Positions 1,573 to 45,564 of a stretch of DNA of 47,574 bases are shown here, piece after piece. Under the pieces are notes generated by a model. That model saw nothing but the letters and a program-made list of their open reading frames with translations. It was not told the DNA's origin and made no database searches. The position numbers and the translations under genes were made by a program. The stretch lies in the sequence record OR896835.1. One strand, written 5' to 3'. The stretch comes from Escherichia phage RobRod40. How positions within the stretch are numbered: the first letter of the stretch is position 1; every line of letters begins with the position of its first letter.

Positions 1573-1612
1573 CACTTTATGCAAAGAATAAAGCTCACGG
1601 ATGAGCTAACAT
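1569..1612 (+). promoter_or_regulatory. conserved promoter-like module (variant ATAGCAC-ttt-ATGCAAAG, 22 bp, TAACAT)
   Basis: terL stop TAG embedded in motif; spacer holds palindrome GCTCAcggaTGAGC; precedes HNH paralog 1. Confidence 0.5.
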
Positions 1613-1635
1613 AATCAAAAAAAAGAGGGTGTATT

Positions 1636-2112
1636 ATGAATTGGGCTGAATTTTTTAGATACGAAGATGGAAATCTGGTAAGGGTTATCACAACCTCAAG
1701 TAGAGCTATTGAGGGCATGGTTGCTGGAAGCTTGCCTGGCAATGGCTATCTGCACATAAGAATAGGCGACAGGCGTGTAAAAAACCATCGCATAATTTGG
1801 GAGATGCACAATGGAAGGATACCAGAAGGGATGGAGATATATCATATCAATCACATAAAGACAGATAACAGGATCGAGAATTTAAGGCTCGTAAGTCACA
1901 AACAGAACCTATCAAACGCATCGCTTAGGTCCGACTCGTCAACTGGTACGAGTGGCGTTAGTTGGAACAGAAACAGGCAGAAGTGGCACGCTTATATAAA
2001 GTCTAACTACAAGAGGATGCACATAGGATTTTTTGATTCCTTTGATAACGCCGTAGCAGCAAGAAAGAAAAAGGAGATTGAACTGGGATTTCATGAGAAT
2101 CACGGAAAATAG
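1636..2112 (+). CDS. HNH homing endonuclease (paralog 1)
   Basis: MNW..F.Y.DG N-terminus, WEMHNG and HINHIKTDNRIENLR motifs; RBS AAGAGGG upstream; shares these motifs with three other ORFs in window. Confidence 0.85.
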   Translation: MNWAEFFRYEDGNLVRVITTSSRAIEGMVAGSLPGNGYLHIRIGDRRVKNHRIIWEMHNGRIPEGMEIYHINHIKTDNRIENLRLVSHKQNLSNASLRSDSSTGTSGVSWNRNRQKWHAYIKSNYKRMHIGFFDSFDNAVAARKKKEIELGFHENHGK

Positions 2113-2152
2113 CACTAATTGCTAAACATCAACACCAAGTATGGAGTATAGT
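2109..2152 (+). promoter_or_regulatory. conserved promoter-like module (ATAGCAC-taa-TTGCTAAA, 22 bp, TATAGT)
   Basis: Stop TAG of HNH embedded; followed by TACCTCACGAAAACGAG leader and RBS. Confidence 0.6.
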
Positions 2153-2183
2153 TACCTCACGAAAACGAGAGGAGAAAAGACAA

Positions 2184-2570
2184 ATGAAAAGCATTTCAAA
2201 AGCTGTATATCTTGGCAACACTAATGGGGAGTATTATGGTTTTACTGTAGGTAATACATATAGTGTTAAATATTTTGAAGCTATAAGTGAAAACTGTTTT
2301 TGGTGTTCAGATGATGATGGTGTTTACCGATATGTCAAAAACGGACCATTGCACAAGTTTAAACTAAGTGATGAGGATGGCTATTTTGTAACTGAGGCTG
2401 AATGCGAAGTCATGCCCCCTATAGACGATAAAAAACCCGAGCTTAGATATTACATCAACGGACATGAGGTTGACGTGATTGAGTTCGGAAATGTTGGCCG
2501 TACTGTATATGAGCTTGATCGGGATGGCATAAAGTGCGACACAATCAAGTTCGAAGTAAAATTCGAGTAA
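2184..2570 (+). CDS. hypothetical protein (accessory gene between HNH and portal)
   Basis: 128-aa ORF with RBS GAGAGGAG; own upstream promoter-like module and downstream terminator. Confidence 0.6.
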   Translation: MKSISKAVYLGNTNGEYYGFTVGNTYSVKYFEAISENCFWCSDDDGVYRYVKNGPLHKFKLSDEDGYFVTEAECEVMPPIDDKKPELRYYINGHEVDVIEFGNVGRTVYELDRDGIKCDTIKFEVKFE

Positions 2571-2592
2571 CCATAAAAGCTATGATAAACTA

Positions 2593-2616
2593 AGCCCCTA
2601 TATGGGGCTTTTTTAT
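2593..2616 (+). terminator. rho-independent terminator
   Basis: GC hairpin AGCCCC-tata-GGGGCT followed by T-run. Confidence 0.7.
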
Positions 2617-2627
2617 TGGAGAAAAAC

Positions 2628-3881
2628 ATGGTCAAGACAGACAGCTACGCCAATATCTTTCTCGGCGGTAGTGATGGTAGTGAGATTTACGGAAGTTTAC
2701 AGAATCAGGCACCAACAATTCTGGCCTCGCTTTACGCGGATAATGCTCTAGTGCGTCGAATTATCGACACAATCCCAGAGACGGCATTGGCGGCAGGATT
2801 CCATATTGATGGTATTGATGATGAGCCTGCATTCTGGTCGCGCTGGGATGATTTAGAAATGACGCAGAATATTAACGATGCATGGTCATGGGCTAGGTTG
2901 TTCGGCGGGGCTGCTATTGTCGCTATCGTTAAGGACAATAGAGCGCTAACAAGTCCGGTAAGAGAAGGAGCGGAACTTGAAACTGTTCGCGTTTACGACC
3001 GTACACAAGTAAAGGTTCAAACTCGCGAGGAGAATCCACGCAATGCACGTTTTGGTAAGCCACTTACCTATCGCATCACCACTAACGAAAGCGATATGTT
3101 TTACGATGTGCATTACAGCCGCATTCACGTCATCGATGGCGAGAGAATTCCTAACGTAATGCGTCGGCAAAATGATGGCTGGGGCCGCAGCGTTCTTTCC
3201 AGTGATATTCTTGACTCAATCAAGGATTACACCAATTGCGAACGACTCGCCACCCAGCTGCTGAGACGCAAGCAACAGGCGGTGTGGAAAGCCAAAGGTC
3301 TGGCTGAGCTGTGTGATGATAGCGAAGGATTTGGTGCCGCGCGCTTGCGACTTGCTCAGGTAGATAACAACAGTGGAGTTGGTCAGGCGATTGGTATTGA
3401 CGCGGAATCTGAAGAATATAGCGTTCTAAACTCTGATATTGGCGGGATTGATGCGTTTCTGGACAAGAAGCTCGATAGAATCGTTGCACTGAGCGGTATT
3501 CATGAAATAATCCTGAAGAACAAGAACGTTGGCGGTGTATCATCAAGCCAGAACACGGCTTTGGAGACATTCCACAAGCTAGTTGACCGCAAGCGTAATA
3601 GCGAGCTACTTCCTATTCTTGAGTTCTTAATCCCGTTCATTGTTAATGTGTCTGAATGGTCAGTGGAGTTTAACCCATTAGCTCAGGAGTCAAGCAAGGA
3701 TAAAGCGGAAATTCTGGAGAAGAACGTAAACAGCATCGCGGCACTAATTGCAGCTGGAGCTATGGATACTAACGAGGCTCGTGATACACTACGCACTATC
3801 GCGCCAGAGATTAAGATTGGTGATGGTGATATTGAGGCTCCGGAACAAGAACCCGCAGAGGAGGTTGTGATTAATGAGTAA
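2628..3881 (+). CDS. portal protein
   Basis: ~417-aa ORF after terL; ATG at 2628 preceded by GGAG (ORF-track start 2616 is TTG); size and position typical of siphovirus portal. Confidence 0.7.
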   Translation: MVKTDSYANIFLGGSDGSEIYGSLQNQAPTILASLYADNALVRRIIDTIPETALAAGFHIDGIDDEPAFWSRWDDLEMTQNINDAWSWARLFGGAAIVAIVKDNRALTSPVREGAELETVRVYDRTQVKVQTREENPRNARFGKPLTYRITTNESDMFYDVHYSRIHVIDGERIPNVMRRQNDGWGRSVLSSDILDSIKDYTNCERLATQLLRRKQQAVWKAKGLAELCDDSEGFGAARLRLAQVDNNSGVGQAIGIDAESEEYSVLNSDIGGIDAFLDKKLDRIVALSGIHEIILKNKNVGGVSSSQNTALETFHKLVDRKRNSELLPILEFLIPFIVNVSEWSVEFNPLAQESSKDKAEILEKNVNSIAALIAAGAMDTNEARDTLRTIAPEIKIGDGDIEAPEQEPAEEVVINE

Positions 3882-44638: not shown

Positions 44639-44781
44639 TTTACATCCACACGTACTACACTGGTAAGTTTAACAGCGTTAAGCATGTTCGTGTTTATGAA
44701 TCCATAATTGATGCACTCAAGCAGCAGGCAGTTCTTGGTGGTACAATTAAGTACTGTGAAGTAATCCAAGAATACAAATAG
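44635..44781 (+). CDS. small hypothetical protein (48 aa)
   Basis: ATGA overlap with upstream gene; stop TAG embedded in next promoter-like module. Confidence 0.35.
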   Translation: MIYIHTYYTGKFNSVKHVRVYESIIDALKQQAVLGGTIKYCEVIQEYK

Positions 44782-44821
44782 CACTAATTGTTAAAATAGC
44801 ATTGGGGTAATTTGTTATAGT
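44778..44821 (+). promoter_or_regulatory. conserved promoter-like module (ATAGCAC-taa-TTGTTAAA, 22 bp, TATAGT)
   Basis: Palindrome GGGGTAatttgttatagtTACCCC spans -10; leader CATCGAAGCGA. Confidence 0.6.
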
Positions 44822-44851
44822 TACCCCATCGAAGCGAATGAGGACAAACAG

Positions 44852-45097
44852 ATGGATAAAGACCCAATATTTAACATGATGATGAGTCAATGTGAAGCAG
44901 TTGGTAAAAGAATGGCAAGGCAGTTCCACCAATCAGAACCCAAACTCCAGACCAACCACTTCGACGGCTACGCAACATTCATCATTGCTCAGGCGTACGG
45001 AATGCGTGAGGACCCGAAGGTTCATACAATCCACATGACCGAAGAGCAGGCGCGAGAATTAGCATATGAAATTCTTGAGCAGCTTAACAAAATCTGA
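44852..45097 (+). CDS. hypothetical protein
   Basis: 81-aa ORF, RBS GAGGA. Confidence 0.5.
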   Translation: MDKDPIFNMMMSQCEAVGKRMARQFHQSEPKLQTNHFDGYATFIIAQAYGMREDPKVHTIHMTEEQARELAYEILEQLNKI

Positions 45098-45107
45098 GGG
45101 TGGCGAT

Positions 45108-45242
45108 ATGCACACAGAGTTAATGATGGACGAGGTTTTTGCTGAGGCTCTACCGTGGTTACTTTTGTCTCTAGGCTTCGCCATTATTTACATAATTTCG
45201 GCATCCGTAGACGACGCTAAAACGAATTCTAAAGAACAATAA
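45108..45242 (+). CDS. small predicted membrane peptide (44 aa)
   Basis: RBS GAGGGTGG; hydrophobic LPWLLLSLGFAIIYIISA segment. Confidence 0.3.
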   Translation: MHTELMMDEVFAEALPWLLLSLGFAIIYIISASVDDAKTNSKEQ

Positions 45243-45262
45243 TTTAAGTAAGGTGATTCATC

Positions 45263-45388
45263 ATGGAAGTACAAGAAAGCACCGTAGAGTGGTGCAAGAG
45301 AATGCAGGACGAAGCTAAGACGGGCGAAGAGGCGATGGCTTACTACGAGCTAGCGCAAATGTGGATGGAACGGGAGAAGAAAGAATGA
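45263..45388 (+). CDS. small hypothetical protein (41 aa)
   Basis: RBS AAGGTGA; ATGA overlap downstream. Confidence 0.3.
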   Translation: MEVQESTVEWCKRMQDEAKTGEEAMAYYELAQMWMEREKKE

Positions 45389-45537
45389 GCTTCACTGAAT
45401 ACGTGATCGCATGTGAACGACTGGTTTTCTGTATGAAGACTTTCCACTGGTTCATCATTAAGGATTTGATTAAGCCCTATAAGCAGGGCGTGACACCTGA
45501 GGCATTTATCAAGAACTTCTATAGCACCAATTGCTAA
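45385..45537 (+). CDS. small hypothetical protein (50 aa)
   Basis: Translationally coupled; last codons and stop lie inside a promoter-like module. Confidence 0.3.
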   Translation: MSFTEYVIACERLVFCMKTFHWFIIKDLIKPYKQGVTPEAFIKNFYSTNC

Positions 45538-45564
45538 ACGCAGCCGCCACGGATGGCGTATAAT
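45521..45564 (+). promoter_or_regulatory. conserved promoter-like module (ATAGCAC-caa-TTGCTAAA, 22 bp, TATAAT)
   Basis: Motif overlaps last codons and TAA stop of upstream small ORF; spacer palindrome CGCCAcggaTGGCG. Confidence 0.6.

Follow-up and report, generated by a model that had tools for sequence, protein, structure and literature searches.

Promoter-like cassettes recur between the genes of Escherichia phage RobRod40 (OR896835.1; the 47,574 nucleotides analyzed here are called the window), and many of them hold a short inverted repeat in the spacer or around the -10-like hexamer. These inverted repeats exist, exceed chance, and co-vary. At roughly even odds (a probability of about 0.5), we read them as accessory stem-loops of the sense strand, most likely formed as RNA, that act on read-through by attenuating or terminating it or by capping the upstream message.

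A repeated promoter cassette

The 47.6-kilobase (kb) window represents a T1-like siphophage of the Drexlerviridae, with ~85 to 88% identity by alignment to AugustePiccard, JeanPiccard, Rtp, and their relatives and a gene order that matches Rtp and T1. A motif search recovered 18 convincing cassettes (14 plus-strand, 4 minus-strand), every one pointing the same way as the genes that flank it and laid out as TAGCACnnnTTGnTAAA, 22 nucleotides (nt), TAtaaT, tAcCnC, and A(+1)TCGAAAC. In a consensus built from 58 non-redundant cassettes (the window plus 11 related genomes), TAGCAC occupies -49 to -44, TTGyTAAA -40 to -32, and T -17, with G at -14 (41 of 58 copies) and at -13, TAtaaT at -12 to -7, tAcCnC at -6 to -1, and A at +1 followed by tcgAAAc; the full TGn of an extended -10 occurs in just 18 of the 58. 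The +1 was placed by the usual 7-nt distance past the -10 and by a conserved C-A step.

The preliminary description gave the spacer as 22 base pairs (bp), and TTGnTA indeed lies 22 nt from the -10 in 15 of the 18 curated window cassettes, with the rest at 21 or 23 nt; 22 nt is also the spacing of the large majority in relatives, where a few have 21 or 23. This distance exceeds the sigma-70 spacer by 5 nt, and with a range of 21 to 23 nt the cassettes do not conform to the sigma-70 consensus (TTGACA, 17 nt, TATAAT). A consensus scan of 17.6 kb returned 25 sigma-70 sites versus ~34 expected, three of which end on a cassette -10 (43061, 44336, 41387), each using a weak hexamer that is not the cassette's own. 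A sigma-54 reading was also rejected. The -24/-12 element of sigma-54 is TGGCAC-N5-TTGC, and every motif contains TAGCAC-N3-TTGC (-49 to -37), with a spacing 2 bp too short, an A for the first G, and a -10 at a fixed distance; some relatives even have TGGCAC in the motif, and the likeness is probably coincidental.

Each cassette fits tightly between its neighbors. The upstream stop codon is the TAG of TAGCAC itself in 63 of 131 cases and lies 3 to 4 nt upstream in 30 more (93 of 131 together), and the Shine-Dalgarno sequence and ATG of the next gene follow ~70 to 76 nt past the motif start. The presumed initial transcribed sequence, A(+1)TCGAAACGA with variants ATCAACAACGA and ACACCAAACGA (e.g., 24935-24946, 33018-33030, and 11864-11876), is conserved across cassettes and genera. 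This leader precedes dozens of unrelated genes.

Part of this arrangement has been reported. In phage TLS, a 21-nt direct repeat, aaATAGCACnnnTTGnTAAAA, has 18 intergenic copies ~76 nt upstream of start codons and is found also in T1, Rtp, and Rogue1, and its function was listed as an open question (PMC11447400). The window motif has the same sequence, orientation, and distance to the start codon, making the window cassettes further copies of that repeat, whereas the published account is without a -10 at 22 nt, a conserved leader, or co-varying hairpins (PMC11447400). The sequences show the published repeat to be the upstream end of a ~60-nt promoter-like cassette, which further comprises a -10 at a constant 22 nt, a discriminator rich in C, and a conserved ATCGAAAC leader.

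Inverted repeats, covariation, and strand bias

Every repeat cited in the preliminary description was found where it had been placed: GCTCAcggaTGAGC at 1593-1606 (which extends to 6 bp, 1592-1607), ATCCAcggaTGGAT at 33888-33901, CGCCAcggaTGGCG at 45545-45558, GGGGTAtgatTACCCC at 24919-24934 (9 bp with one G·U, 24916-24937), GAGGTG...CACCTC at 32997-33017 (14 bp as RNA, 32992-33022), GGGGATT...AATCCCC at 43902-43930, GGGGTAA...TTACCCC at 44804-44827, and AAGCCCttcgGGGCTT in a minus-strand copy. Two more hairpins came to light, ATGCCG...CGGCAT at 35995-36014 and AGCGG...CCGCT at 39393-39417. The repeats are real and above chance, but the claim that most modules carry one was too generous, since only about half do and nine window cassettes have no structure beyond that of shuffled sequences. 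Perfect stems of at least 5 bp are present in 10 of the 18 window cassettes and of at least 6 bp in 8 of 18; stems of at least 6 bp occur in 48% of 190 unique cassettes, versus 6 to 7% of shuffles and random genomic 40-mers. By RNA folding against dinucleotide shuffles, z was -2.5 or lower in 7 of the 18 window cassettes, near -1.8 in two, and indistinguishable from shuffles in nine. A search of the window against Rfam at the gathering score matched only tRNA-Arg, with no family for the cassette hairpins.

To the cassettes from 11 complete relatives, which included T1 and three Klebsiella phages (two of them Webervirus), we added IMG/VR contigs only if they carried at least two cassettes, because a first motif scan gave many chance matches in unrelated contigs. 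The combined set of 280 unique cassettes, 93 of them non-redundant (<70% identity), gave the following frequencies.

Spacer pairing with its own -10 or downstream part, at least 6 bp: 23.7% of 93, versus 5.0% of chimeras, 4.7% of own-composition shuffles, 5.4% as mirror repeats, and 4.3% in the wrong pairing
Spacer pairing with its own -10 or downstream part, at least 7 bp: 15.1% of 93, versus 1.2% of chimeras
Stem wholly within the spacer, at least 5 bp: 32% of 93, versus 6.6% of shuffles
Stem wholly within the spacer, at least 6 bp: 21.5% of 93, versus 1.2% of shuffles

A permutation test on the 58-cassette set gave p <=2e-4. About 50% of cassettes have a stem of the spacer-internal or the spacer-downstream kind and the remainder have neither, and because of this we call the hairpin accessory.

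The hairpins fall into two placement classes. Spacer hairpins, whose stems are rich in G+C and whose loops are short (GAAA, GCGA, UUCG, CGGA, and others), lie wholly in the spacer and end their 3' arm at the first bases of the -10, as in T1 CCCGC-GAAA-GCGGG|TATTAT. In -10-bracketing hairpins, the 3' arm is the discriminator, often continuing through +1 to +3, the 5' arm can lie anywhere in the spacer, and all or most of the -10 falls in a loop of 4 to 16 nt; examples of their arm pairs are GGGGTA/TACCCC, AAGGCC/GGCCTT, AGGGGA/TCCCCT, GGGGTT/AACCCC, and GTAACGTC/GGCGTTAC. Common to both classes is a 3' arm anchored next to the -10 or over -6 to +1, with a floating 5' arm, an arrangement that fits a folded single strand and not a dimeric operator. 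An operator of that kind would have fixed arms at a fixed spacing; here the arms differ, the 5' arm moves, loops range from 4 to 16 nt, and the fixed-register tests of bracketing hairpins were not significant.

These register tests used a gap-free alignment. A 5-bp tetraloop hairpin abutting the -10 paired 50.5% of cells versus 43.3 ± 1.9, a level reached in 0 of 500 shuffles, and beat all slid versions of itself, whereas the two commonest -10-bracketing registers, long-loop and short-loop, were equaled in 40 and 115 of 500 shuffles, and column-wise covariation across all cassettes produced no dominant register. The fixed-register results are thus mixed: no helix is common to all cassettes, and each has its own. 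Register-free tests across the family are strongly positive, and the selection for structure that the preliminary description had read from the covariation is supported over selection for sequence, in that arms differ among cassettes and among orthologs yet stay complementary.

Orthologs give the same picture of change with retained pairing. At cassette 32969, Rtp has GATGGGG/CCCCATC, T145P1 has GGGG/CTCC with a G·U pair, and A110b has GGAG/CTCC, a compensatory series that passes through a wobble pair. Turnover is high: whole spacer alleles have been exchanged among phages (32969 and 2110), hairpins of relatives are absent from the window at 2110, 43061, and 46999, and the reverse also occurs.

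The preliminary description left the choice between a DNA cruciform or operator and an RNA hairpin open, and the evidence favors the hairpin in sense-strand RNA and disfavors the other two. Single mismatches inside stems, between Watson-Crick pairs, are G·T 17 times and A·C 3 times among all unique cassettes (13 versus 2 counted per cluster, p = 0.007). Folding gave a mean z of -2.55 on the sense strand, versus -1.34 on the antisense strand (Wilcoxon p = 5e-8), and because this advantage is independent of the strand on which a cassette stands in its database record, the bias tracks the direction of transcription. Cruciforms and duplex protein sites would give no such strand asymmetry, which argues for RNA. 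When GNRA and UNCG tetraloops are compared between the strands, CGGA reads UCCG on the complementary strand, which is a UNCG loop as well. The 40 nt that begin ~6 nt past the presumed +1, comprising the leader and gene start, are depleted in stems (1.6% reach 6 bp, versus 7% in the genome), so that structure is kept out of the transcript that the cassette itself would start.

The 18 window cassettes are as follows, with energies given as minimum free energy in kcal/mol and z from the folding test.

1570..1619, plus strand: degenerate motif (TAGCACTTTATGCAA) and -10 TAACAT, ahead of an inserted open reading frame (ORF) at 1636-2112; hairpin AGCTCA-cgga-TGAGCT at 1592-1607, wholly in the spacer and abutting the -10 (-7.1 kcal/mol, z -3.56); ortholog only in AugustePiccard among the 11 relatives
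2110..2159, plus strand: no hairpin (z +0.85); orthologs in Rtp, T145P1, and AugustePiccard have GCCA-cgga-TGGC at the same offset
11815..11864, plus strand: weak pairing UUUGAUG/CAUCGAA at 11845-11869 (z -1.03); a canonical terminator (CCCTCTTCGGAGGGTTTTTT) stands directly 5' of the motif
24886..24937, plus strand: hairpin GGUGGGGUA-ugau-UACCCCAUC at 24916-24937, 9 bp including one G·U (-15.5 kcal/mol, z -4.18); the -10 gives its first two bases (TA) to the stem and its other four to the loop, and the 3' arm extends over the discriminator and +1 to +3; pairing mostly kept in orthologs, with a compensatory G-C to T-A change in T145P1
30468..30516, plus strand: 21-nt spacer, located before the helicase gene and diverging from the regulator gene; no hairpin (z +0.22)
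32969..33022, plus strand: strongest hairpin of the window, 32992-33022, 14 bp with G·U and the -10 at its apex (-20.2 kcal/mol, z -6.50)
33865..33914, plus strand: AATCCA-cgga-TGGATT at 33887-33902 within the spacer (z -2.53); ortholog loops CGTA or TGGA
35975..36024, plus strand: AUGCCGUA-gaaa-UGCGGCAU at 35995-36014 (-11.7 kcal/mol, z -4.43), its 3' arm overlapping the first bases of the -10 (CATAAT); kept in six relatives
43061..43110, plus strand: just a 4-bp CCTT-ccgc-AAGG at 43078-43089 (z -0.61); in DTL and A110b, similar cassettes that match in the upstream flank only bracket the -10 with AAGGCC...GGCCTT, the 3' arm of which is missing in the window
43884..43933, plus strand: GGGGAUU...AAUCCCC at 43902-43930, its 3' arm over the final three -10 bases plus the discriminator (-12.6 kcal/mol, z -1.92)
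44336..44385, plus strand: motif variant CAGCAC and a T7 run before the -10; no significant hairpin (z -0.08); DTL ortholog CCCTC-tccg-GAGGG
44779..44828, plus strand: UGGGGUAAUU...AGUUACCCCA at 44803-44828 brackets the -10 with 10 pairs (-14.2 kcal/mol, z -3.89)
45522..45571, plus strand: CGCCA-cgga-TGGCG at 45545-45558, not significant alone (z -0.52); outermost pair often broken in orthologs (CGCCA...TGGCA)
46999..47048, plus strand: -10 GATAAT, no hairpin (z +0.82); Rtp ortholog GGCCC...GGGCC
41337..41387, minus strand: 23-nt spacer, no significant hairpin (z -0.71)
39824..39873, minus strand: AAGCCC-uucg-GGGCUU then UU, at 39843-39858 directly after the motif (-8.9 kcal/mol, z -1.74); more like a terminator than any other window copy
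39393..39442, minus strand: AGCGG...CCGCU at 39393-39417 brackets the -10 (-10.8 kcal/mol, z -2.90); kept in seven relatives
23207..23257, minus strand: 23-nt spacer, no hairpin (z +0.16)

Three of these cassettes (1593, 33888, and 45545 by repeat start) carry CACGGATG at an identical offset, exactly 3 nt before the -10, with outer pairs that co-vary (GCT/AGC, ATC/GAT, and CGC/GCG). The same element recurs in several cassettes of each of seven relatives with the core CAYGKATG, the CCA/TGG stem kept, and the outermost pair often broken. The ACGGAT that the preliminary description called a conserved loop is common to the three window copies but varies in relatives (CGGA, TGGA, CGTA, and TGTA). 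CAYGKATG is a real sub-family, for which common descent or gene conversion could account.

Stem-loops on read-through and the alternatives

A close parallel comes from the promoter-early stem-loop cassettes (PeSLs) in RB49 and phi1, two T4-type phages (Arbiol et al. 2010, PMC2839356). PeSLs are repeated intergenic units that begin at the upstream stop codon, place stem-loops between the -35 and -10 or over the -10, carry GGGG...CCCC tracts with G-T pairs, and mark where modules are exchanged; attenuation of the transcription that reaches them from upstream was proposed as their role, and one stem-loop cut lacZ expression about as much as the rrnB T1 terminator (PMC2839356). The cassettes described here likewise begin at the upstream stop codon and extend as far as the Shine-Dalgarno sequence and ATG of the next gene, in about half of cases have a stem-loop over the -10 or in the interval that separates it from the upstream hexamer, use stems of G runs and C runs with G-T pairs, are dense among small genes of unknown function, and sit at mosaic junctions. 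They differ in belonging to an unrelated phage family with a different conserved sequence, and their promoter does not follow the sigma-70 consensus, as TTGnTA is 22 and not 17 nt from the -10 and an extra TAGCAC box stands at -49 to -44. The T1-like cassettes reproduce the layout of PeSLs and would work like them, and are not homologous members of that family. In the literature searched, the co-varying hairpins have not been described before for Drexlerviridae; the concept of a combined promoter and stem-loop is established.

The fixed elements of a cassette take up -49 to -32, -14 to -7, and +1 onwards. In the model we favor, a structure that has to fit in after the stop codon of the upstream gene and before the next transcription start is thereby limited to -31 to -13 (spacer) and -6 to -1 (discriminator), the only free positions. 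Read-through transcripts from the upstream gene would contain the hairpin, and transcripts from the cassette's own promoter would not. Attenuation or termination of read-through is one action that the hairpin could then have, and capping of the upstream message at its 3' end is the other; either would insulate each cassette, as has been proposed and partly shown for the T4-type PeSLs. We infer the position of +1, the action as RNA, and the attenuator or insulator function.

Annotations of related phages are consistent with an attenuator role: the T1 annotators placed rho-independent terminators within cassette spacers at T1 38973-39001, 39998-40024, and 41980-42007, and in TLS two predicted terminators lie inside cassettes, T62 next to DR12 and T57 next to DR10, making five independent predictions. 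The enrichment of homology breakpoints at cassettes, given below with its caveat, is consistent with that role as well. Like intrinsic terminators, about half of the cassettes have a G+C-rich stem (at least 5 bp) closed by a loop of 3 to 8 nt, the short loops are often GNRA or UUCG, spacer-hairpin stems run into an all-A/T hexamer, and a true T tract is found in a few copies of T1, TLS, DTL, and AugustePiccard. Unlike intrinsic terminators, most cassettes are without a U tract, -10-bracketing hairpins are followed by AUCGAAAC, and stems are often just 5 to 6 bp.

Several results weigh against this model. The consensus terminator scan called no window cassette hairpin, and most hairpins have no U tract (at least 5 T in the 8 nt after the stem); even the minus-strand copy at 39824..39873, credited by the preliminary description with a full terminator hairpin, has only four T after its stem. 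By sequence criteria, the suggestion of combined terminator/promoter units made in that description applies to a minority (the five annotated T1 and TLS terminators) but not to most hairpins. Cassettes with spacer hairpins show no T enrichment downstream of the -10 or in the discriminator. Hairpins are equally frequent with and without a long co-directional ORF upstream (52% versus 47%), and where a canonical terminator precedes the cassette they are not significantly rarer (36% versus 51%, n = 11). The T1 helicase promoter, divergent from the regulator gene, still has a 9-bp bracketing repeat. Several stems are just 4 to 6 bp and fold at -5 to -7 kcal/mol, and the literature searched contained no transcript-end data, transcriptome, or start-site map for any T1-like phage.

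One alternative is that the repeats act as promoter DNA, where a hairpin or cruciform that exposes or brackets the -10 tunes melting, supercoiling sensitivity, or dependence on an activator, much as in phage N4 with its hairpin-form promoters or in conjugative plasmids with their single-stranded ones. The promoters of the N4 virion RNA polymerase have a 5- to 7-bp hairpin of fixed position and conserved sequence, which is needed for recognition and read by the phage polymerase. The T1-like cassettes share with them a small hairpin within a phage promoter, but register and sequence vary and ~50% have no hairpin; the TLS authors reported no phage RNA polymerase or sigma gene for T1-like phages (PMC11447400). 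Precise placement of the 3' arm (abutting the -10 or over -6 to +1), partial dyad symmetry of the consensus around the -10 (G-14 G-13 T A ... t a c C), the unusual 22-nt distance from the -35-like hexamer, and the presence of GGGG...CCCC at the same spot in the unrelated T4-type cassettes all speak for a role in the promoter. Yet about half of the cassettes keep every promoter element without a hairpin, so recognition is unlikely to require one; the register varies, with bracketing registers not significant in fixed-register tests, 10- to 16-nt loops on 6-bp stems make poor cruciforms, and both the excess of G·T over A·C and the better folding of the sense strand oppose a two-strand structure. 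We consider this explanation unlikely. Shortening of the 22-nt spacer by the hairpin was rejected separately, as extruded lengths are inconsistent and half of the cassettes have none. There is a still slimmer chance that the hairpins are not terminators but a switch that tells read-through from promoter-initiated RNA, or DNA presenting the -10 as a single-stranded loop, read by a phage factor (e.g., the Cro-like regulator described below) or by host polymerase to coordinate re-initiation at dozens of tandem promoters with 22-nt spacers; if true, this would be a structure-assisted promoter class for host polymerase.

Another possibility is that the hairpins serve the mobility or recombination of cassettes, which would be linkers for modular exchange with G-run/C-run stems as targets or by-products of a phage recombination system, a role also speculated on by the PeSL authors (PMC2839356). 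The cassettes do appear to be junctions of mosaic exchange. In comparisons with the 11 relatives, 27 of 149 homology-block ends fell in cassette intervals versus 5.4 expected, a ~five-fold enrichment (e.g., 35972, 39449, 43877-43955, and 45521-45594), with the caveat that intergenic DNA is in any case where alignments tend to stop; in many orthologous cassettes, homology is limited to the upstream or to the downstream flank, and spacer alleles are swapped whole, as at 32969 and 2110. The ORF at 1636-2112 (plus strand), inserted after the large terminase gene, even brought a degenerate cassette directly ahead of it; among the relatives examined only AugustePiccard shares this insertion, and its counterpart is annotated as a putative homing endonuclease. 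However, breakpoints gather in any divergent intergenic DNA and are hence not specific to hairpins, exchange between cassettes needs the conserved motif and not the variable hairpin, and recombination leaves arm covariation and sense-strand bias unexplained, so that we regard this role as rather improbable. Slightly more doubtful is the idea that the CAYGKATG subclass is the site of a sequence-specific protein or RNA-binding factor instead of a generic hairpin: the fixed offset of its 8-mer and recurrence in seven relatives invite it, but the core varies while CCA/TGG or TCA/TGA pairing stays, the outer pairs co-vary, common descent or gene conversion between cassettes can explain the shared 8-mer, and no candidate binding protein was identified for CACGGATG. 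It is also very unlikely that the repeats are functionless by-products of common ancestry among the cassettes, G/C-rich sequence on either side of the -10, and a consensus that is itself palindromic in part. Bracketing registers that do no better than column shuffles, the half of cassettes that have no hairpin, and gain and loss between close relatives would be expected in that case, but chimeras that keep consensus and composition reach 6 bp in 5% versus 24% of real cassettes, the set was made non-redundant at <70% identity, and orthologs carry compensatory and G·U substitutions.

Neighboring features and significance

Some neighboring features bear on how the cassettes might be controlled. 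The ORF at 29981-30454 (minus strand) encodes a 157-amino-acid protein that matches phrog_2856, "transcriptional regulator" (E = 1e-83), is a homolog of Rtp52 and T1 gp23, and has a Cro-like helix-turn-helix just under the Pfam cutoff; cassette 30468 lies in its divergent intergenic region. The cassette motif contains a half-palindrome, TAGCA-N5-TGCTA, centered near -42. Class II activators, and lambda cI at PRM, bind near -42, and this centering makes the 157-amino-acid regulator a candidate activator of the cassettes. Within the 17.6 kb scanned, the only near-consensus sigma-70 promoter is at 41948-41976 on the plus strand (TTGACT, 17 nt, TATAAT; 11 of 12 matches), where it heads a rightward cluster of small genes starting at 42015. 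It may be a true immediate-early promoter, and if so, the cassettes might depend on a phage factor.

Two matches to the motif stand apart from the 18 cassettes. At 28467-28530 (plus strand), a perfect TAGCACGAATTGCTAAA motif lies antisense, with minus-strand genes on either side (26109-28472 and 28530-29453); it lacks a -10 at 22 nt, and after it comes a hairpin that looks bidirectional, AACCTCCCGAAGGAGGTT. Between the tail-fibre and primase genes of T1, a motif that lacks a -10 precedes a hairpin, and the unannotated Klebsiella phage KLPN4 has a similar orphan motif. At 46114, a one-mismatch match is spurious, being the 5' part (TAGCTCAATTGGATAGC) of a tRNA-Arg gene (anticodon TCT) at 46107-46184 on the plus strand.

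T1-like phages are abundant, and both phage therapy and screens for defense systems make use of them, yet their transcription program is essentially unmapped. A practical gain from recognizing the whole cassette is better annotation of promoters and terminators in Drexlerviridae. In two unrelated virulent lineages, T4-type and T1-type, mosaic junctions have come to hold the same kind of promoter, with a stem-loop built into it, and this parallel suggests that the design is a general way to insulate and shuffle small gene cassettes.

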